28,767 bases of DNA from a virus. Its lineage: Duplodnaviria; Heunggongvirae; Uroviricota; Caudoviricetes. A program made the position numbers and the translations under genes. The stretch lies in the IMG/VR virus record IMGVR_UViG_2778261058_000020; one strand, 5' to 3'. Shown piece after piece: positions 1 through 25,795 of the stretch; position 1 is the first letter of the stretch; every line of letters starts with the position of its first letter. Under the pieces are notes generated by a model. The model ran no database searches. It was not told where the DNA came from and was given only the letters and a program-made list of their open reading frames with translations.

Positions 1-1998
1 ATGTTAACCCATTGGGTAACAGCGCAAGAATGCGTAGGAATGTCATGCTTTCCTAAACATGAGGTGAGTATTCGCCGCAATCTTGAAAAGCTTGCAGCCA
101 ATCATCCAGAACTACGTCGCAAGCGTACGGGTTCAAAGGCTTTGGAATTTCATATATCAGTTCTGCCAGCGGCAGCACGTGCTGAGTTGTTATTAAAATC
201 TGAGCAAATAGAAACAAGCCAGGGGTATTTTGAAATCGCCCGCCCCACGCTGGAAGCCCATGATTATGATCGTGAGGTGCTGTGGAGCAAATGGGATAAA
301 GCCAGCGATTCTCAGCGCAGACTTGCTGAAAAATGGTTGCCTGCGGTTCAGGCTGCAGACGAAATGCTGAACCAGGGGATTTCAACGAAAACGGCTTTTG
401 CGACCGTTGCAGGGCATTACCAGGTCAGCGCATCCACTTTGCGGGACAAGTATTACCAGGTACAGAAGTTTGCGAAGCCTGACTGGGCGGCTGCACTTGT
501 TGATGGACGTGGTGCATCCCGTCGCAATGTTCACAAAAGTGAATTTGACGAGGATGCCTGGCAGTTTCTGATTGCAGATTTTCTGCGACCGGAAAAACCC
601 GCCTTCCGCAAATGTTATGAGCGTCTGGAACTGGCAGCCCGCGAGCATGGCTGGAGTATTCCCTCCCGTGCCACGGCCTTTCGCCGGATTCAGCAACTGG
701 ACGAGGCAATGGTTGTTGCCTGCCGTGAAGGTGAACATGCACTGATGCATCTGATACCGGCACAACAACGAACTGTGGAACACCTGGACGCCATGCAGTG
801 GATCAACGGCGACGGTTATCTGCATAACGTCTTTGTACGCTGGTTTAACGGTGATGTGATCCGCCCGAAAACATGGTTCTGGCAGGATGTGAAAACCCGA
901 AAAATTCTGGGCTGGCGCTGCGATGTGAGCGAGAACATTGATTCAATTCGCCTCTCGTTCATGGATGTTGTGACTCGCTACGGTATCCCGGAGGATTTTC
1001 ACATCACCATTGATAACACCCGTGGTGCTGCGAATAAATGGCTGACGGGAGGCGCGCCCAATCGCTACCGCTTTAAGGTAAAAGAGGACGATCCAAAAGG
1101 ACTGTTTTTACTGATGGGTGCGAAAATGCACTGGACAAGCGTTGTTGCCGGTAAAGGCTGGGGCCAGGCAAAACCTGTTGAACGTGCTTTCGGTGTTGGT
1201 GGGCTTGAGGAATACGTTGATAAGCATCCGGCACTGGCTGGCGCATATACGGGGCCTAATCCGCAGGCAAAACCTGATAACTATGGCGACCGCGCTGTTG
1301 ATGCAGAGCTGTTTCTGAAAACCCTTGCTGAAGGTGTTGCGATGTTTAATGCCAGAACAGGCCGTGAAACAGAAATGTGCAGGGGTAAACTCTCGTTTGA
1401 TGATGTTTTCGAGCGTGAATACGCCAGAACGATTGTGCGTAAGCCTACCGAAGAGCAAAAACGGATGCTGTTACTGCCTGCCGAGGCGGTGAACGTTTCA
1501 CGCAAAGGCGAGTTTACGCTTAAAGTTGGCGGCTCCCTTAAAGGCGCGAAAAACGTTTATTACAACATGGCGTTAATGAATGCCGGTGTGAAAAAAGTTG
1601 TGGTCAGATTTGATCCGCAGCAGCTACACAGCACGGTTTATTGCTACACCCTGGACGGTCGATTTATCTGTGAAGCGGAATGTCTGGCACCTGTTGCGTT
1701 TAATGATGCTGCGGCAGGCCGTGAATATCGCCGCCGCCAGAAACAACTGAAATCTGCAACTAAAGCAGCCATTAAGGCGCAGAAACAAATGGACGCGCTG
1801 GAAGTTGCTGAACTGCTGCCGCAGATAGCCGAACCGGCAGCACCAGAATCAAGAGTTGTTGGTATTTTCCGGCCTTCCGGTAACACGGTGCAGGTGAAAT
1901 ACCAGGAACCCGATGAGGAATATGAAACTGATCGTGATGAATATCTGAATCATTCGCTGGATATTCTGGAACAGAACAGACGTAAAAAAGCCATTTAA
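1..1998 (+). CDS. A: DDE transposase MuA (665 aa ORF; may be 5'-partial because it begins at window nt 1)
   Basis: Track ORF 1..1998; residues from about 75 onward ([16 protein letters not shown] ... [15 protein letters not shown]) match Mu transposase A as I recall it; first ~70 aa look divergent. Confidence 0.9.
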
Positions 1999-4139: not shown

Positions 4140-4664
4140 ATGGCTAAACCAGCAAAACGAATCAAGAACGCCGCAGCGGCTTATGTTCCGCAATCCCGCG
4201 ATGCCGTGGTATGTGATATCCGCCGGATTGGTGACCTGCAACGCGAAGCGGCACGACTTGAAACGGAAATGAATGACGCTATCGCTGAGATTACGGAGAA
4301 ATACGCCTCACAGATTGCACCTCTTAAAACCAGTATTGAAACCATTTCAAAAGGCGTTCAGGGATGGTGTGAAGCGAACCGCGACGAACTGACGAACGGT
4401 GGCAAGGTGAAGACGGCAAACCTGGTAACCGGCGATGTGTCATGGCGTCAGCGCCCGCCATCGGTAAGTATTCGCGGTGTGGATGCGGTGATGGAAACGC
4501 TGGAGCGTCTTGGCCTGCAACGCTTTATTCGCACGAAACAGGAAATCAACAAGGAAGCGATTTTACTGGAACCGAAAGCGGTCGCAGGTGTTGCCGGAAT
4601 TACAGTTAAATCGGGCATTGAAGATTTTTCTATTATTCCGTTTGAACAGGAAGCCGGTATTTAA
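4140..4664 (+). CDS. gam: Host-nuclease inhibitor Gam (Ku-like, RecBCD inhibitor), 174 aa
   Basis: Track ORF; AGGAG RBS; sequence MAKPAKRIKNAAAAYVPQSRDAV ... IEDFSIIPFEQEAGI matches Mu Gam as I recall it, same length. Confidence 0.85.
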   Translation: MAKPAKRIKNAAAAYVPQSRDAVVCDIRRIGDLQREAARLETEMNDAIAEITEKYASQIAPLKTSIETISKGVQGWCEANRDELTNGGKVKTANLVTGDVSWRQRPPSVSIRGVDAVMETLERLGLQRFIRTKQEINKEAILLEPKAVAGVAGITVKSGIEDFSIIPFEQEAGI

Positions 4665-4704
4665 TACCACCACGAATATTTAATTAATTCACTTTCTTTT
4701 AATT

Positions 4705-4989
4705 ATGGCGCGATGCGTCAGGGGATTGCTCGCGCCTGAATCTGAAATGGTGATGTTTATGACCACAAAGAGTGAACGACAAAAAACAGAAATAACAGCA
4801 GCAACGCTGATTAAAGACAGCGCCGAATGTCTGGCATCAGTACCTGCATTGATTCAACAGGCGAATGCAAAAAATCTCCGTCGCGCAGCTTCGTTTATTC
4901 GTGCAGGCATTACCCGCCAGATGATGATTGCGCAGCTGTGTATGCGCGAAGCACAGCGTCTGGAACAGATGGAGACGAGCGGTGATTAA
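4705..4989 (+). CDS. Hypothetical small protein; true start uncertain (ATG 4705, 4747 or 4759)
   Basis: Track ORF; several in-frame ATGs; GGTGA-like RBS precedes the ATG at 4759. Confidence 0.4.
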   Translation: MARCVRGLLAPESEMVMFMTTKSERQKTEITAATLIKDSAECLASVPALIQQANAKNLRRAASFIRAGITRQMMIAQLCMREAQRLEQMETSGD

Positions 4990-5179
4990 GTCAATTGGCT
5001 TTGTCCTGCTGGTTGGCACCTGCGGGAATGATGCCTGTGATGCTATCCCGGTAACAGAAAAAATCTGGCCCACAGAGCAGGCATGTATGCAGGTGATGGA
5101 GCGCATACAAAAACGTTATCCCAATGAAATCTTTTATTGCGAGGAGGTATTAAGAAATGAAAATACAGATGATTACTGA
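4982..5179 (+). CDS. Small Cys-containing protein with N-terminal hydrophobic segment, possible secreted or lipoprotein (about 65 aa, GTG start proposed)
   Basis: Track ORF 4928..5179 (TTG start); GTG at 4982 gives a GTGATTAA-type overlap with the upstream stop; N-terminus IKSIGFVLLVGTCG is hydrophobic; 4 Cys. Confidence 0.35.
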   Translation: MIKSIGFVLLVGTCGNDACDAIPVTEKIWPTEQACMQVMERIQKRYPNEIFYCEEVLRNENTDDY

Positions 5180-5492
5180 TGCTGATTTAATGGCTGCAAC
5201 CTTAATTTCCAGTGGCATGCCAGAACAAAAGGTAAATGATTTCCTGGATAATGTCGTATACCAGCACTATGAGCAGGCCAGAGAAAATTTAATTTCAGAA
5301 AAGCTCACGATGATTGCTGAATCATTAAGTCCTGCATGGATTATCGAAGAGTTGCGGGGAATCATTGCCAGCCAGGATAAAGTGGCGGCAGTTGCCGCCC
5401 TCGATGTGCTACAGCGAATGAGTAAAGAGCTATTCAACACTGAATTAATTTTTAAATCCGGGGGACATAATGAGCCGCACATCCCTAATTAA
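5157..5492 (+). CDS. Hypothetical early protein (111 aa)
   Basis: Track ORF; strong GAGGAGG RBS upstream of ATG 5157; 3' end overlaps the gemA start. Confidence 0.5.
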   Translation: MKIQMITDADLMAATLISSGMPEQKVNDFLDNVVYQHYEQARENLISEKLTMIAESLSPAWIIEELRGIIASQDKVAAVAALDVLQRMSKELFNTELIFKSGGHNEPHIPN

Positions 5493-6021
5493 ATTAATTC
5501 ATGTTGCCCGTCGGGAGTTGCAACTCGACGATGACACTTACCGAGCTTTTCTGGTGCAGTGCACGGGCAAAACCAGTTGCCGCGAGCTGTCTGTTGCACA
5601 ACTGGAACAAGTGCTCGATGCCATGAAAGAGCGCGGTTTTAAAAAGCAGAAAAAACATCCCCGCCGTCGCTTTAAGGGGCATGTCACACCGCGCGAGAAG
5701 ATTTATAAAATCTGGCAGCAGATGTTTCTTGATGGTTTCGTCTCCGATATCAGCGACGCCGCGCTGGACAAATACGTTGAACGTCTGACGGCCAGACGTA
5801 ATGGTGGTCAGGGTGTTTCCACGCTGGCCTGGTGTCATGGGGAATCGTTGCAGGTTGTGCTCGAAACGCTCAAGCAGTGGCATATGCGCTGCATTCGGGA
5901 AGCCTTTGCCCGACATGGCGTGCCTTTACCTGTGAGCGAAACCGGGCGGGAACTGCGCGGATATGATGCACTGACCAGTGCGTATGCCCGCGCCAGAAAC
6001 AGCGGGAGAATAGTTCTATGA
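5470..6021 (+). CDS. gemA: GemA-like protein (Mu gp16 family), 183 aa
   Basis: Track ORF; size and position directly upstream of mor with ATGA start/stop overlap; sequence resembles Mu GemA as recalled. Confidence 0.7.
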   Translation: MSRTSLIKLIHVARRELQLDDDTYRAFLVQCTGKTSCRELSVAQLEQVLDAMKERGFKKQKKHPRRRFKGHVTPREKIYKIWQQMFLDGFVSDISDAALDKYVERLTARRNGGQGVSTLAWCHGESLQVVLETLKQWHMRCIREAFARHGVPLPVSETGRELRGYDALTSAYARARNSGRIVL

Positions 6022-6419
6022 AAGAGCAGGATTTATTTGGTGATTATCAGGACGACAGTATCCTTGAATATTTTGATGATGTTCAGGAAAAATCGGGATT
6101 TCCATCTTTACTGGCTGAGCTGAATGCTCTGTTGCGACAAGAGCTGATAAGGCTTGGAGTTAACCCTGCCCACTCCCTTGAGCTGGTAGTGGCGATTTGC
6201 AATCATATCGGTGGGATTCAGGTATATGTTCCGAAAGGGAAAATACTGGAAAATCTTATCAGAGACATGCGCATCTGGCGTGATTTTGATGGGAAAAACG
6301 TAGCGGAGCTGGTGCAGCGTTACAAAGTGACATACAAAACGGTATATCAGGCCATCAAAAGAATGCGCCGACTGGAGCGTGGAAAGTATCAAATGCAACT
6401 ATTTAAGGACGAACAATGA
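6018..6419 (+). CDS. mor: Mor/C-family transcription activator (middle operon regulator-like), 133 aa
   Basis: Track ORF; C-terminal GGIQVYVPKG linker followed by an HTH (VAELVQRYKVTYKTVYQAIKRMRR) typical of the Mor/C family; follows gemA as in Mu. Confidence 0.8.
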   Translation: MKEQDLFGDYQDDSILEYFDDVQEKSGFPSLLAELNALLRQELIRLGVNPAHSLELVVAICNHIGGIQVYVPKGKILENLIRDMRIWRDFDGKNVAELVQRYKVTYKTVYQAIKRMRRLERGKYQMQLFKDEQ

Positions 6420-6913
6420 AATATCTTCCCCTTATTCTTTTACTAACTGTTACTACTGTACAAGCGGCGGATACATTCCAGCAAAAAGTCAAAGATGTTT
6501 TTCAGAAAAAAACATCCGTTGACTATACCGACTGGTACGGTAAAGGTGACGCTGCCATTGCTGAGTTTAAAGGATTTAACTTAGGTGTATATCAGGATTT
6601 AAAGACGTCTGTGCGAGATAACGAAATCAACATAAAAATGCAGTATGTTACAGGACCGGTTCGCCCCGATAGCGACGAGTTCGCTCAAATGACGTCTGCT
6701 TTATGTGAAACTGTTTTTGAGCCTTTTGTTGTCCCTGATTATGTTCGCCCGACATCATGGGACGATGATACCCCAGCCCCGCTGAATTTCATGCAAGTTA
6801 AAAATTTAAAGCAAGCTGAAGATGATCCTGTCGAAAAAACAGTAAATGGCTGGAAGATAAAAATTGATCGTTCAGTAATGAAGACTACGTGTTCTGCCCG
6901 TAAAGTTAACTGA
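6416..6913 (+). CDS. Secreted (periplasmic) protein of unknown function with cleavable signal peptide, 165 aa
   Basis: Track ORF; N-terminus MKYLPLILLLTVTTVQA followed by ADT (AXA-type cleavage site); ATGA overlap with the mor stop; coding sequence looks AT-richer than its neighbours. Confidence 0.6.
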   Translation: MKYLPLILLLTVTTVQAADTFQQKVKDVFQKKTSVDYTDWYGKGDAAIAEFKGFNLGVYQDLKTSVRDNEINIKMQYVTGPVRPDSDEFAQMTSALCETVFEPFVVPDYVRPTSWDDDTPAPLNFMQVKNLKQAEDDPVEKTVNGWKIKIDRSVMKTTCSARKVN

Positions 6914-6935
6914 ACCAATAACCTTATATTCAATG

Positions 6936-6959
6936 AAGCCGGTAAATCCGGCTTTTTTT
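6936..6959 (+). terminator. Rho-independent terminator-like hairpin (AAGCCGG-TAAAT-CCGGCTT plus T7)
   Basis: Perfect 7-bp stem, 5-nt loop, run of seven T; sits 23 nt after the stop codon of ORF 6416..6913. Confidence 0.7.
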
Positions 6960-7014
6960 ATGCCTCCGGCACCATGAAGCAGACCACGTTTAAATCTGCT
7001 TCACAGGTGCTTTT

Positions 7015-7611
7015 ATGGAAAATCTAAAATTCTCCCCGGCCTTTGAGCATGCGCTGAATTTTATTCTGCGTCCTGATATCGAAGGCGGCTATGTCAATGA
7101 CCCCACTGACAGTGGCGGCGAAACCAAATACGGCATTTCTGACCGCCGCGACGGTGTGATTGACGGCAAAACCGATGTCAACGGCGACGGCAAACCGGAT
7201 ACCCGCATTAAGGATTTAACCCGCGAACAGGTTGCGCAGATTTACTGGCGCGATTACTGGCTACCTGCCGGATGTGACCAGTGGCCTGATGGCGTGGCGA
7301 TGTTTGTGTTCGATGCGGCGGTTCAGCATGGCGTTAAAAAAGCCATCAGGATTTTGCAGGAAGCCGCTGATGTGGATGCTGACGGCATCATCGGCCCACG
7401 TACCCGTAAGGCCGTGAGCCTGTCCACACCGGATTGGTTGCTGGCCCGCTGCATTGTCCGTCGTTCCTGCTTTTATGCCGACATCATCAAGTCAAAACCC
7501 GCCCAGGGCAAATACCTGAACGGCTGGTTTAACCGCATGGAAAAACTGACCGACGCCTGTCTGGAAATCATCGATACCCCTTTGGGCATCATGTCCGCCA
7601 CGCGGGGGTGA
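7015..7611 (+). CDS. lys: Endolysin, GH108-type N-terminal domain plus PG_binding_3-like C-terminal domain (198 aa), no N-terminal TM/SAR segment
   Basis: Track ORF; motifs EGGYVNDPTDSGGETKYGIS and RDYWLPAGCDQWPDGVAMFVFDAAVQHG ... DGIIGPRTRKAV typical of GH108/PG-binding-3 lysins; position equals Mu lys. Confidence 0.75.
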   Translation: MENLKFSPAFEHALNFILRPDIEGGYVNDPTDSGGETKYGISDRRDGVIDGKTDVNGDGKPDTRIKDLTREQVAQIYWRDYWLPAGCDQWPDGVAMFVFDAAVQHGVKKAIRILQEAADVDADGIIGPRTRKAVSLSTPDWLLARCIVRRSCFYADIIKSKPAQGKYLNGWFNRMEKLTDACLEIIDTPLGIMSATRG

Positions 7612-7612
7612 T

Positions 7613-7840
7613 ATGGGCAAAGGCTGGGATGCCTCACTGAAAGCCGGGCGGCGTGACCGCCTGCGTCAGGAGGTTTTACACCGCATGGCCGGAGGTCCGC
7701 CCCCGAAACCGCTGGACTATACCGGCCATGACGGCACACACGCCAGCTACTACATGCGTGGCTGGAACTCCGTGGATACACGGGACATTTTCTGGCAGTG
7801 CCAGAAGTACAAGGAAAAACTCAATGCACAGAATGAATAG
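7613..7840 (+). CDS. Hypothetical small protein (75 aa), start 2 nt after endolysin stop
   Basis: Track ORF; tight coupling to lys; no recognisable domain. Confidence 0.4.
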   Translation: MGKGWDASLKAGRRDRLRQEVLHRMAGGPPPKPLDYTGHDGTHASYYMRGWNSVDTRDIFWQCQKYKEKLNAQNE

Positions 7841-8234
7841 TCTTTTTGTTCGCGTTATTTACTCCCGCTTTATGTTGTGCCAGTGGTCGTTTCTGGGACT
7901 GTCGGCAGTACTTTTTCTGGCGAGCTGTTTTGCCGGATGGCGGGCGTTTGCGGTCATGGTGCTGGCATACGGCGCGACACTCTGCCTGATTCACAGTTTC
8001 CAGCTGGGCAACGTACCTTATCGCCTGCAGCCCAAAAGGCGTTTCCGGGCCGCCTCCCTTCGAATTGTCGTGTGGTCATGGGTGGTCTGGGCCGTTGGTT
8101 TTTTCATGCTGACATTCGGCATTCTTTATCTGAAGGAGCCTTATCAGCTGGCGTTCTGGCTGGGCGGTATTTTTTGCGCGGCACTTTATAAACATCAGCG
8201 CCGTTTTCATAAGGGGGATTCATGGATCCGTTAA
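7824..8234 (+). CDS. Integral membrane protein, about 4 predicted TM helices (136 aa); lysis-cassette candidate
   Basis: AAGGA RBS upstream of ATG 7824 (track ORF 7653..8234 is the same frame extended); several long hydrophobic stretches. Confidence 0.5.
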   Translation: MHRMNSLFVRVIYSRFMLCQWSFLGLSAVLFLASCFAGWRAFAVMVLAYGATLCLIHSFQLGNVPYRLQPKRRFRAASLRIVVWSWVVWAVGFFMLTFGILYLKEPYQLAFWLGGIFCAALYKHQRRFHKGDSWIR

Positions 8235-8830
8235 CCCTTTCAGGCATCGCCTCTGTTCTGCTGAAAGCCGGGCCGGGGCTGATTCGTTCCGTCGGGCGCT
8301 GGTTTGGTGGCAGTACATCTGCCGCCGCTGACTCGGTGGCCGGTATGGTGGAAAGCGTCCGGGAAAGCCTTCCCGTTGCTGAACAGCAACGCATTCTGGA
8401 ACAAAAACTGGTGATGCTGTCACCGGAGCAACTGGTGCAACTGGAAACCCTGAAAATTCAGCTGCAACAGCTGGAGGTGGAACGGCAGAAGCTGGTGCTG
8501 GCTGACCAGCAGGCCGCACACCACGAACAGCAGGAAACCATCCGCAATGGTGACAACGCCACGGACAGCTATGTGCGCCAGACACGCCCGCTGCTGGCCC
8601 GCCTTTCCTGTTACAGCAGTCTGGCCTATGTGCTGTTGCTCTCCTGCGGCCAGATTGCCGGAGCCATTGCCGGTGCCAGAGGTATCACGCTGCATATGCC
8701 ATCACCGGACTGGGATATCACGCTGATGTTGCTTACCCCGGCGCTGGGCTATCTCGGTGTAAGAACCCTTGACGGCTTTGCCCGTTACAGCAAATCAAGC
8801 CGTCACAAAATGTCTGCGGGGCCGAAATGA
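8222..8830 (+). CDS. Membrane/coiled-coil protein, possible holin-like protein (202 aa)
   Basis: Track ORF; Gln/Leu-rich central coiled-coil region and C-terminal hydrophobic segments; adjacent to endolysin. Confidence 0.45.
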   Translation: MDPLTLSGIASVLLKAGPGLIRSVGRWFGGSTSAAADSVAGMVESVRESLPVAEQQRILEQKLVMLSPEQLVQLETLKIQLQQLEVERQKLVLADQQAAHHEQQETIRNGDNATDSYVRQTRPLLARLSCYSSLAYVLLLSCGQIAGAIAGARGITLHMPSPDWDITLMLLTPALGYLGVRTLDGFARYSKSSRHKMSAGPK

Positions 8831-9054
8831 CCGACGAAATCGATCGCATCAGTGAAGTGGTTCTGAACGAGCGTCAGAGCGTCGTTAAAGCCTGGCAGAC
8901 ACGGACAAAAGAAGCGCCCCACAGCCGGGGCTTCTGCAATGACTGCGGGAACGTTATTCCGGCACAGCGCCTTGCGGCGCTGCCGGATGTGGTGACCTGT
9001 ATTGACTGTCAGCAGATGCGGGAACGCAGGAGGAAAACGTGTCCTGGGAAATGA
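8827..9054 (+). CDS. TraR/DksA-family C4-type zinc-finger protein (75 aa)
   Basis: Track ORF; CNDCGNVIPAQRLAALPDVVTCIDCQ gives C-x2-C-x17-C-x2-C spacing typical of phage TraR-like proteins. Confidence 0.55.
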   Translation: MTDEIDRISEVVLNERQSVVKAWQTRTKEAPHSRGFCNDCGNVIPAQRLAALPDVVTCIDCQQMRERRRKTCPGK

Positions 9055-9344
9055 TCAGAGCCAACTGGCCCATTCTGTGGGCATTGCTGATGACAGGAAT
9101 AAACCTGCTTCAGTTGATTCTGGCAAAGACCTACGTCAAACGCGAAGAGTTTGATTTGCTGCGTTCCCGCGTGTCGGTGATGGAAAGCCAGGTACATCAG
9201 CTACCTGATCGTGATGAGTTCCACCGCCTGCAACTGGATATCAGCAACCTGCGGGGAGAAATCAAAGAGCTGGGGCCATCCATCCGCCAGGTATCCCGCA
9301 TCAGCGATTTGTTATTAGAGAACGAGTTAAAGGAAAAAAATTAA
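9039..9344 (+). CDS. Small membrane-anchored coiled-coil protein (101 aa, GTG start); possible lysis or morphogenesis accessory
   Basis: Track ORF; AGGAGG RBS upstream; N-terminal hydrophobic helix WPILWALLMTGINLLQLIL then charged helical region. Confidence 0.5.
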   Translation: MSWEMIRANWPILWALLMTGINLLQLILAKTYVKREEFDLLRSRVSVMESQVHQLPDRDEFHRLQLDISNLRGEIKELGPSIRQVSRISDLLLENELKEKN

Positions 9345-14515: not shown

Positions 14516-14728
14516 CCCTCCCGCCGTAAATCCCCCTGAAACGCATCAGAAACGCGTTTTTTATTCTGATGGCGTGAATGTGCATTCTGACGTTTTTGAA
14601 GATGCTGTGGCGTTTTTGAAGGGGTTTTGAAGGGGGTATTTCCCCGTTTTCAGTGAAGCCGGTAAATCCGGCTTTTTTTCTGCCTTCCGCATACTGACCG
14701 TCGGTAACCCCAAACGACGGAGACTGAC
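14516..14728. promoter_or_regulatory. F-I intergenic control region: hairpin, palindrome, three tandem TTTTGAAG repeats, second copy of terminator/dyad cassette; candidate late promoter and/or gyrase site
   Basis: Only sizeable non-coding gap in the late region; hairpin CATCAGAA/TTCTGATG (14544-14571); GAATG-TG-CATTC (14576-14587); CGTTTTTGAAG at 14591-14601 and 14611-14621; GTTTTGAAG at 14624-14632. Confidence 0.5.
14656..14679 (+). terminator. Rho-independent terminator-like hairpin, second copy (AAGCCGG-TAAAT-CCGGCTT plus T7)
   Basis: Identical in sequence to the hairpin at 6936-6959; follows gene F and precedes gene I. Confidence 0.7.
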
Positions 14729-15691
14729 ATGCAACCGGAACTGCTGGCGCTGTGTTTTTCCCTGCCAGAACCCATCCCTGAGCTGACACCCGCTCAACTG
14801 CCTGAATGGCTTGAACTCGTTCCTGCGGGTGAGTTCACCGGGCGCGATGGCCGGACGTGGATTAACCGCAATCCGCATGAGGTGGTCACCCGTTCGTCCG
14901 ACATCAAAATTCCGGTGGACATTGAACACGCCACCGAAATTAAAGGGCAACGCGGTGATGAAGCCCCGGCGTATGGCTGGGTGGAAGAACTGCGCGTGAC
15001 GGACAGCGGCACCATTGAAGGCCGTGTTGTCTGGAGCGAGTACGCCCGGTGGATGCTGAGCGAACGCCGTTACCGCTATTACAGCCCGGCGTTTTTCTTT
15101 GACGCAGACGGTGTGGTGACGCGCCTGTCCAGCGTCGGGCTGACCAACAAACCTAACCTGGATTTTCCTGCACTGAATACGGAGAAAAACCCGATGACAG
15201 TACCTGTGCAAATCACCGGCCTGCTTGGGCTGGCTGAATCTGCCACGGTGGACGATACCGTGGCCGCCATTAAACAACTTCAGGAGAACGAACAGGTGGC
15301 GCTGAACCGCGCACAGACACCTGACCTGACGAAGTTTGTACCGGTGGAAACCCACAATCTGGCACTGAACCGTGCCGAAACCGCAGAACAACGCCTTCAG
15401 CAACTGGAAGAGAAGGAAGCAGAAGCGCTTGTGGATGCGGCCATCGAAGCCGGAAAAGTGGCCCCGGCAAACCGTGACATGTTCCTTGCCACCTGCCGCA
15501 CGGAAGAAGGCCGCAAACAGTTTGCGGAATACACCAAAGGTGCACAGCCGCTGGTGAACAACGACAAGCCCAGCCAGGGCAAGGATAAACCCGCGCAGAC
15601 ACTGACCGACGCCGAACTGGCGATGTGTCGCAGCATGGGTATTACCGGGGAAGAGTTCCTCACCGCTAAACCGAAACAGGAGAATAACTGA
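14729..15691 (+). CDS. I: Head maturation protease / scaffold protein I (Mu gp32-like), 320 aa
   Basis: Track ORF; GGAG RBS; N-terminal protease-like region and Ala/Glu-rich helical C-terminus; immediately upstream of major head gene. Confidence 0.75.
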   Translation: MQPELLALCFSLPEPIPELTPAQLPEWLELVPAGEFTGRDGRTWINRNPHEVVTRSSDIKIPVDIEHATEIKGQRGDEAPAYGWVEELRVTDSGTIEGRVVWSEYARWMLSERRYRYYSPAFFFDADGVVTRLSSVGLTNKPNLDFPALNTEKNPMTVPVQITGLLGLAESATVDDTVAAIKQLQENEQVALNRAQTPDLTKFVPVETHNLALNRAETAEQRLQQLEEKEAEALVDAAIEAGKVAPANRDMFLATCRTEEGRKQFAEYTKGAQPLVNNDKPSQGKDKPAQTLTDAELAMCRSMGITGEEFLTAKPKQENN

Positions 15692-25268: not shown

Positions 25269-25795
25269 ACGCCATTACCCGCCGTCTGCGGCTGATGGTT
25301 GACCGTGCCATTGTCCGCATGGTGTCTGACAGTCTGGAGCGGCAGAATCTTCAAATTCAGACGCTGGCAGATGCCACTGATGACGATGTGGAACGCTTCC
25401 AGAATTACGGTTTTACTTCCGTTCCGCCGGAAGGTTCAGAAGCCATCGTGCTGGCCGTGGGCGGACGGCGTGATGGTCTGGTTGCCATCGCGGTGGAGGA
25501 CAAGCGATGTCGCCCTAAAGGACTGTCCCCCGGCGATGTCCGGCTGTATCACCAGGACGGCAAATCACATATCACGTTAAAGAAAGGCGGTATTATTGAA
25601 ATCACAGGAGAACAATTAAATCTTTCAGGGAAAACGGTAAATCTCACCGCCGACGAATTGCTGAATATTATCGGTAAACAAATGAAATTCGTCGGTCCCT
25701 GTGAATTTACTGAAGATGCCACCATCAACGGCAAATCATTCATCGAACACATTCATAAGGACGGCGACAATGAGAATACATCACCGCCCGTATGA
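25259..25795 (+). CDS. Baseplate assembly / spike protein (Mu gp45, gpV-like), 178 aa
   Basis: Track ORF; order and size. Confidence 0.6.
   Translation: MGLNAITRRLRLMVDRAIVRMVSDSLERQNLQIQTLADATDDDVERFQNYGFTSVPPEGSEAIVLAVGGRRDGLVAIAVEDKRCRPKGLSPGDVRLYHQDGKSHITLKKGGIIEITGEQLNLSGKTVNLTADELLNIIGKQMKFVGPCEFTEDATINGKSFIEHIHKDGDNENTSPPV

Follow-up and report, generated by a model that had tools for sequence, protein, structure and literature searches.

A single Mor-type activator, a duplicated terminator/Pm-like element and a variable gene slot after mor in a Mu-like Escherichia coli prophage

The 28,767-nt stretch of DNA analysed here (the window) contains a Mu-like transposable prophage of E. coli, in which every gene lies on the + strand. 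Comparison with phage Mu and with related prophages points to a two-tier regulatory cascade, in which the early operon would provide Mor and Mor would directly activate both late operons, and ORF165, the gene that follows mor, would be accessory cargo in a variable slot; we place the probability of this reading at about 0.62. The three-tier cascade of Mu is the textbook model for Mor/C activators, and, to our knowledge, the switching on of late genes in Mu-like phages with a single Mor/C gene has not been worked out; a literature search returned nothing on the control of late genes in these phages. The window prophage varies a familiar scheme in an unremarkable way, with one orphan protein family added, and does not represent a new kind of system. 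It provides a directly testable single-Mor case, combining a Mor protein 63% identical to Mu Mor with two near-identical Pm-like sites.

The genes on which the analysis relies are the following.

1–1998, + strand: transposase A
2037–2975, + strand: transposase B
4140–4664, + strand: gam
5470–6021, + strand: gemA (GC 0.533)
6018–6419, + strand: mor, the sole Mor/C-family activator gene of the window (GC 0.435)
6416–6913, + strand: ORF165, encoding a 165-aa protein predicted to be exported, with a predicted signal peptide at residues 1–17 (nt 6416–6466)
7015–7611, + strand: lys, an endolysin gene with GH108 and PG_binding_3 domains (Pfam E = 1.1e-24 and 2e-16)
7613–7840, + strand: homologue of Mu gp18, after lys (tblastn, 69.6% identity over 69 aa, E = 2e-31)
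14729–15691, + strand: head protease/scaffold gene, the Mu I homologue (Pfam Mu-like_Pro)

Later genes of the window include a TraR/DksA zinc-finger gene, DUF2730 (the Mu gp25 family), terminase, portal and F, and the I homologue is followed by capsid gene T and by tail genes up to the window end. Of 5,426 complete E. coli genomes, about 60 carry a near-identical prophage. That of isolate 2014-01-7375 (NZ_LR882057) sits in fic, extends from a repressor gene to com-mom and is 98.3% identical to the window over positions 5400–7700. The window includes neither prophage end, and a complete 98%-identical prophage (loci L002 and L004) covers both; its PGAP annotation names the I homologue "phage protease". 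Synteny is retained in a relative from Citrobacter freundii with 55% identity of the ORF165 protein, in which the gp18 homologue is recorded as PF26867 (Phage_Mu_gp18).

The product of 6018–6419 belongs to the Mor family (Pfam PF08765, E = 6.6e-30, 103.7 bits against a cut-off of 24.9) and is 63% identical to Mu Mor and 32% identical to Mu C (tblastn). The initial annotation had seen only one Mor/C-family protein in the window, and a Pfam profile search, tblastn and a local HMM all agree with it. No second Mor/C gene was detected in the window by the Pfam search, carried out at E <= 0.1 on about 143 stop-to-stop segments in six frames (+ strand: 83 segments, minimum length 60 aa; - strand: 59 segments, minimum length 95 aa), and tblastn of Mu Mor and Mu C against the window returned 6018–6419 only. 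The local HMM, for which Mu Mor, Mu C and the window Mor were the source sequences, recovers both genes in Mu; in the complete 98%-identical prophage, ends included, it gave one gene and no more, and it gave a single match in each of 22 related loci, taken with their 10-kb flanks, and in L027. One Mor is likewise listed in the PGAP annotation of the 98%-identical prophage.

These searches bear on the possibility that a C-type late activator does exist, either elsewhere in the prophage or too diverged for recognition. In its favour, the prophage ends lie outside the window. In addition, the related complete prophage has com-mom genes, whose Mu counterparts depend on C; the Pm-like element described below is absent upstream of com, and the sequence found there, ATACCCCCAG, is more like the C-type P_I of Mu (CATAACCCCAG) than like that element. 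At least one late function is therefore left with no identified activator site. Yet the six-frame Pfam search matched mor alone even at E <= 0.1, the HMM that recognises both Mu genes gave one in the complete prophage and one per locus in its 22 relatives, and most Mu-like phages have one Mor/C gene, all of which makes a hidden C a slim prospect.

Among 50,697 phage records searched by tblastn with the window Mor, two Mor/C places were found only in Mu, D108, SfMu, Yersinia vB_YpM phages, PhiR68_1 and Mu_3F6, while 34 of the 49 Mor-matching records, including Vibrio, Burkholderia, Pseudomonas, Shewanella, Klebsiella and Pasteurella phages, have one. A single Mor/C gene is the norm among Mu-like phages, the pair being of the Muvirus type (Mu/D108/SfMu group), and the window prophage belongs to a lineage without gene C; what had been presented as a notable absence is thus the usual state. 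BcepMu, phiE255, Vibrio martha 12B12, Shewanella MuM16 and Klebsiella Kp4866-3 resemble the window in having a single gene. All of them except Kp4866-3 are distant from the window Mor (about 30–39% Mor identity), and Kp4866-3 also has the layout of mor, slot and element, with a 107-aa membrane protein as cargo.

The window Mor ends in QMQLF, a MuC-like QxxLF motif, and most Mor proteins of the lineage without C end in QMQLF, QLDLF, QMPLF or QPDLF. A clamp-binding C-terminal motif, QPDLF, has been reported for MuC, and Mu Mor ends in QPSLL (PMC12867686). The QxxLF ending fits Mor having taken over the role of late activator, although this is a correlation only.

Downstream of ORF165 lies one of two copies of a repeat with the following components.

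6929–6971, + strand: copy 1 of a 43-nt repeat, in which a terminator hairpin (6935–6955) followed by T7 overlaps a Pm-like upstream half
6970–6975, + strand: -10-like hexamer CACCAT, 17 nt after CCGGC
14649–14691, + strand: copy 2 of the repeat, 91% identical to copy 1

The strong terminator claimed to follow the ORF was recovered: the hairpin of copy 1 has an 8-bp G+C-rich stem with five GC pairs and the T7 run, with a folding energy of -12.6 kcal/mol (z = -3.6), as expected of an intrinsic terminator. Alignment with Mu indicates that this terminator is homologous to the Mor-dependent middle promoter Pm. GenBank AF083977 places the Mu middle promoter, "activated by Mor", at 9163–9233, with a predicted terminator (9179–9200) inside it, and a published cloning primer for Mu "Pm" begins at nt 9163 and includes the hairpin. 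Published work on Mu Pm locates the Mor dyad at -51 to -36 and describes it as a pair of 5-bp arms separated by 6 bp rich in G/C. If 9224 is taken as +1, the dyad reads AGTAAAGCCGGTTAAT, consistent with -57G and -54A as published. In Mu, the left half-stem of the terminator forms the Mor-site core, with CCGGC followed after 17 nt by the -10 hexamer TATCCT. In copy 1, the Mor-site-like 16-mer AATGAAGCCGGTAAAT at 6932–6947 matches the Mu dyad at 13 of 16 positions, so that the Mu module AGTAAAGCCGGTTAATCCGGCTTTTTTT-N10-TATCCT aligns with AATGAAGCCGGTAAATCCGGCTTTTTTT-N10-CACCAT beginning at window position 6932; by analogy with Mu, transcription is predicted to start at about 6983.

In copy 2, the corresponding 16-mer AGTGAAGCCGGTAAAT (14652–14667) matches Mu at 14 of 16 positions and is followed at the same 17-nt spacing by the -10-like hexamer CATACT (14690–14695). 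Both copies contain a 16-bp dyad of the 5-6-5 type with a G/C-rich spacer, centred near -43.5, and a -10-like hexamer with no -35, and no sigma-70 consensus promoter was called at either. The dyad arms are less symmetric in the window copies than in Mu (3/5 versus 4/5), and both -10-like hexamers are weak. Apart from the 13–14 of 16 matches in the Mor site, the window elements share with Mu Pm the hairpin AAGCCGG-N5-CCGGCTT with its T7 run, the 17-nt spacing, the lack of a -35 and the position straight after the early operon, and the leaders are of 24 nt in Mu and of 32 and 26 nt in the window. They differ from it in three respects: the window prophage has two copies, before lys and before the I homologue, and Mu has one; the window element is proposed to drive lysis and structural genes directly, whereas that of Mu drives a middle operon ending in C; and in the window mor is separated from the element by an inserted accessory gene. 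The prophage also illustrates how one 25-bp module can close an operon and open the following one.

No longer direct repeat than these two copies (43 nt, 91% identity) exists in the window, where the 17-mer AGCCGGTAAATCCGGCT occurs exactly twice against an expectation of 0.09. Both are intergenic and directly upstream of a late block: lys is the first gene 3' of copy 1, and the I homologue is the first gene 3' of copy 2, which lies within the 213-bp gap where Mu has the C-dependent P_I. The element was found only once in Mu and only twice in the whole related prophage. It follows mor in 22 of 22 related loci, with a second copy about 8 kb downstream in most of them, and these loci include Citrobacter freundii (ORF165 identity 55%) and relatives at 68–75% Mor identity. 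In an alignment of 14 copies and Mu Pm, the core CARTGAAGCCGGTAAATCCGGC is nearly invariant and the flanks are unconserved; A2 and T6 of the hexamer and the G that follows it are invariant, and the spacing is fixed. Since conservation of A2 and T6 is expected of a -10 element and unneeded by a terminator, it supports a -10 role for the hexamer. The second copy of the Citrobacter locus L007 keeps the sequence with a degraded hairpin (-6.4 kcal/mol, z = -0.6), and those of L024 and L025 have lost the T-run and retain the stem, in L024 through a G-U change.

The same elements could be read more simply, the repeated hairpin being only the intrinsic terminator of the early operon and of the packaging operon (terminase-portal-F), its likeness to Pm being that of a shared terminator, and the late genes being expressed by read-through or antitermination, by an unrecognised activator or from unseen promoters. 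The strong stem with T7, the location of both copies at the 3' ends of gene blocks and the weakness of the -10-like hexamers are in line with this, and the preservation of the L024 stem by a G-U change implies that selection for termination accounts for part of the conservation. However, in Mu the same sequence lies inside a mapped Mor-dependent promoter. Conservation reaches 3–6 nt upstream of the stem (CARTGAAG) and includes the A/T/G-invariant hexamer 17 nt downstream, neither of which a terminator needs, and the sequence is kept in all of the second copies that lack the hairpin (L007) or the T-run (L024/25). Nor was a sigma-70 consensus promoter found on the + strand for either late block. 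On this evidence we consider the terminator-only explanation unlikely, albeit with some weight. Selection seems to act on the element in two capacities, protein binding and hairpin formation, a pattern consistent with a dual terminator and promoter role, as in Mu.

The preferred two-tier reading can then be outlined as follows. The early promoter would transcribe mor and ORF165, the latter being translated by coupling to mor and thus presumably made early in lytic growth, and the early operon would end at the hairpin that doubles as the counterpart of Pm. Mor would bind and activate copy 1, switching on the lysis and packaging operon, and likewise copy 2, switching on the head-tail operon, so that two tiers (early, then late) would replace the three of Mu (early, Mor, C and then late). 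Direct activation of the late operons by Mor is proposed on the basis of the homology of the element to Pm and its conservation. The initial annotation had offered a single Mor-type activator of late genes as one of its options, and the presence of Pm-like copies upstream of both the lysis and the head-protease operons favours it. As in the Mu cascade, in which Mor acts through C on Plys, PI, PP and Pmom, the early operon has the Mor orthologue (63%) as its final regulatory gene, and the late operons start at the same genome positions as the lys and I operons of Mu. Unlike Mu, the window has no C gene, no C-type site (TTAT-N5-6-ATAA) at lys or I, and a Mor with a MuC-like QxxLF end. Because the terminator is recognisable as a Pm-type module present twice, the question of whether Mor alone suffices becomes simple to test.

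The model places a heavy load on copy 2. A search of the window and of the related full prophage, allowing up to 3 mismatches, gave no further copy of the element that could serve the tail genes; a 16-mer with 3 mismatches at 25627 was rejected, being inside a baseplate gene and having no hairpin. For the tail genes of the window no third promoter was detected, whereas Mu possesses a distinct P promoter, and neither a strong terminator nor a consensus promoter was found on the + strand 3' of copy 2. One promoter would therefore have to serve the head and tail genes over about 20 kb.

The initial annotation had placed ORF165 in the position that C occupies in Mu, but synteny assigns it elsewhere. 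The order in Mu is mor, 8 nt, hairpin/Pm, gp18, gp19, gp20, C, Plys and lys, with C downstream of Pm and gp18 as the first gene of the middle operon. ORF165 lies instead between mor and the terminator/Pm-like element, where Mu has 8 nt and the related locus L019 has 4 nt. In the window, lys comes immediately 3' of the element and is followed by the gp18 homologue, as if the middle operon of Mu (minus C) and its lys operon had in effect been fused behind one Pm-like element.

The slot between the mor stop codon and the element was found in five states among the relatives, one of them empty.

Empty: L019 (4 nt) and Mu (8 nt)
ORF165-type protein: the window, L007, L008, L010–14 and L022
159-aa signal-peptide protein (PHROG 38744, function unknown): L003 and L015–18
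170-aa protein with an N-terminal membrane anchor (TM): L020/21
107-aa multi-pass membrane protein (PHROG 36430): L023–26 and Klebsiella phage Kp4866-3

Alignment with the 159-aa allele of L003 and other E. coli prophages delimits the exchanged segment.

6445–6926 (approximate), + strand: exchangeable cassette

Outside this segment the window and L003 are 88–97% identical, and inside it they are 40–60% identical. The borders are sharp: the left one, at about 6445, falls within the signal-peptide codons, and identity resumes at about 6927. In nine E. coli genomes the match to the ORF165 allele spans 80% or more of the query, and many others match as two pieces skipping ORF165. The slot is a hypervariable cargo site, or cassette site, at the 3' end of the early operon. 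Its four protein types are mutually unalignable, all are predicted to be exported or membrane proteins, and all of their genes are AT-rich (GC 0.32–0.42). The three larger proteins are alike in size, in an early W-x-x-K-G-[DN] motif and in a pair of Cys residues, one in the middle and one C-terminal. Common ancestry of ORF165 and the 159-aa protein was not established, hhalign covering only the first 41 residues with 42% probability, and the 170-aa protein gave 0.3% in the same type of profile comparison. Related prophages thus swap small envelope proteins at a defined site, which makes it a place to seek exclusion and counter-defence functions.

ORF165 is a real gene, as evidenced by homologues with invariant residues and by a confident AlphaFold2 (AF2) model. 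The overlap with mor noted earlier is confirmed: the ORF165 start codon overlaps the TGA of mor as ATGA at 6416–6419, with a Shine-Dalgarno sequence, AAGGA, 6 nt upstream. A cleavable signal peptide had also been proposed, and a rule-based assessment agrees, all features of a type I (Sec) signal peptide being present. The N-terminus, MKYLPLILLLTVTTVQA followed by AD, has K2, the hydrophobic core LPLILLLTVTTV (9-residue Kyte-Doolittle mean up to 2.8) and V-Q-A at -3 to -1, giving the cut VQA|A; no lipobox Cys is present, the first Cys occurring at residue 97, and the pattern is kept in the homologues. The predicted mature protein has 148 aa, a pI of 5.0 and two invariant Cys residues, and hydropathy analysis gave no further hydrophobic or membrane-spanning segment in it. 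These features indicate that ORF165 is an accessory gene for a Sec-exported periplasmic protein, which is probably disulfide-bonded.

The ORF was also said to be AT-richer than the flanking genes and perhaps an acquired moron. A GC profile bears out the first statement: ORF165 has the lowest GC content (0.404, GC3 0.349) of the 27 genes measured, compared with 0.548 for lys, 0.55–0.60 for the late region and 0.550 for the whole window. Three other early genes are almost as AT-rich (0.417–0.435), and much of the GC step near position 7000 is the boundary between the early and late parts of the mosaic. The second holds in part. ORF165 shares with lambdoid morons a present, absent or replaced pattern at one site, a deviant base composition and a predicted envelope product, but it differs from them in having no detectable promoter of its own and in being coupled to an essential regulator in a repressed operon. 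A crude consensus scan found no sigma-70-like promoter on the + strand from 5711 to 6935, which is a weak negative. Were ORF165 a classical lysogenic-conversion moron, made from the repressed prophage to alter the host surface, its AT-richness, variable cassette site, exported product and following terminator would all be in character. Against this stand the lack of a promoter-like site upstream of it on the + strand, the overlap of its start with the mor stop, its place inside the repressor-controlled early operon and the fact that the terminator is the shared early terminator/Pm element and not its own, and we regard a classical moron as quite improbable. Given no promoter, mor-coupled translation and a repressed early operon, ORF165 is expected to be expressed early in lytic growth and not from the repressed prophage.

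The ORF165 family is small, with nine cluster representatives among 1.84 billion proteins; the homologues are 27–58% identical and share the invariant C97, C159, W40-Y41-x-K-G-D and G145-W146. The AF2 model has a pLDDT of 88.6 and a pTM of 0.80, low pLDDT values being confined to residues 1–20, and gave no convincing fold match in the PDB or BFVD. Searches of Pfam, PHROGs and NCBIfam returned no match, and a PDB sequence search gave only E >= 0.32. Assignment to ZorB, the sole PADLOC match, was rejected as being at chance level (E = 0.0024). In tblastn against the 50,697 phage records, Mu included, the ORF165 product matched nothing, and Mu gp18–20 are dissimilar to it, which rules out a Mu core gene; neither of the two findings that would have overturned the initial annotation, a second Mor/C ORF in the window or a Mu homologue of ORF165, was made.

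As for function, a low-confidence guess is that ORF165 acts as an early-lytic, envelope-acting periplasmic accessory factor, for example in superinfection exclusion, which is the commonest precedent for envelope-acting accessory phage genes. ORF165 and the other slot proteins might instead be lysis regulators (periplasmic antiholin-like or endolysin-controlling) adjoining the lysis cassette, as the GH108 endolysin gene directly 3' of ORF165 and the predicted periplasmic or membrane nature of every slot occupant would suggest. This we hold to be very unlikely: a terminator separates ORF165, which belongs to the early transcription unit, from the lysis genes, and the searches linked it to no known holin, antiholin or lysozyme inhibitor. 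Moreover, the slot is empty in L019 and Mu despite the same lysis genes downstream, which makes lysis control less likely than the superinfection-exclusion guess. A broader and tentative scenario, which we think doubtful though possible, is that the lineage without C rewired its cascade by copying the terminator and Mor-promoter module before each late operon, with the sole Mor, bearing a MuC-like clamp-binding tail, as late activator. The slot would then be a hotspot of early envelope proteins that shield the lytic cell, by superinfection exclusion or by blocking envelope-acting defences, among them ORF165, for whose fold neither of the two libraries searched gave a relative.

A minor feature was observed in the region between the -10-like hexamer of copy 1 and the lys start codon.

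6976–7002, + strand: inverted repeat GAAGCAGA-N11-TCTGCTTC

Inverted repeats of unrelated sequence occupy the same position in 12 of the 12 promoter copies folded, starting 0–2 nt from the base after the hexamer, and their individual z-scores are mostly weak. With the +1 of Mu, the left arm would not be transcribed from Pm, so that the hairpin could form only in read-through RNA.

In the lineage with a single Mor/C-family gene and no C, most Mor proteins (those encoded by the mor genes of the related loci L003-L026 and of the window) end in QMQLF, QLDLF, QMPLF or QPDLF, and the Mor proteins of L023-26 end in QYSLDME.

window 6390-6416, + strand: Mor C-terminus

The more common ends resemble the C-terminal clamp-binding motif of MuC, QPDLF, and are unlike that of Mu Mor, which ends in QPSLL (PMC12867686).

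The complete prophage 98% identical to the window carries com and mom, in a region corresponding to DNA past the window's right end.

L004 (NZ_LR882057.1) 4622-5640: com and mom region

As in Mu, the DNA upstream of com-mom is GATC-rich. No C gene was found in this complete prophage, and no element resembling Pm, the Mor-dependent middle promoter of Mu, was detected upstream of its com-mom; the upstream sequence ATACCCCCAG is similar to the C-dependent P_I of Mu, CATAACCCCAG.

Folding of Pm-type promoter copies revealed an inverted repeat starting 0–2 nt 3' of the -10-like hexamer in all 12 copies, nine of them from L007, L008, L020, L022, L023 and L024, and the others as follows.

window 6976-7002: inverted repeat after the hexamer of the copy before lys
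window 14698-14720: inverted repeat after the hexamer of the copy before the I homologue
L001 1218-1250: inverted repeat after the hexamer

The repeats are unrelated in sequence between copies, and the folding z-scores of single repeats range from 0.0 to -4.8 and are mostly weak. If the +1 of Mu (9224) is applied, transcription begins downstream of the left arm; only read-through transcripts could then form the hairpin, which might block their translation.

Upstream of the second Pm-like copy, window 14540-14650 contains another terminator-like hairpin (GAAACGCATCAGAAACGCGTTTTTT) and repeats of the motifs GTTTTTGAAG and GGTTTTGAAGGGGG. This stretch, partly conserved in the Citrobacter locus, is possibly an UP-like region or a further regulatory one.

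Three further genes were located after the endolysin gene.

window 7613-7840, + strand: Mu gp18 homologue (70% identical)
window about 7887-8234, + strand: membrane protein gene (PHROG 12596)
window 8827-9054, + strand: TraR/DksA-type C4 zinc-finger gene (PF01258, E = 7e-11)

The middle operon of Mu has gp18 and gp19 ahead of C and lys, whereas here the gp18 homologue and the membrane protein gene follow lys; the gene order around lys is therefore rearranged rather than simply affected by deletion. The TraR/DksA-type gene is part of the lysis/late cluster and overlaps its neighbours; since TraR-family proteins target RNA polymerase, its product could modulate late transcription.

The early region combines Mu-like with non-Mu segments in a mosaic. 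The transposase N-terminus (window 1-200) is presumably unlike that of Mu A, the remainder appearing nearly identical, a pattern that would point to a D108-like exchange of the operator-binding domain.
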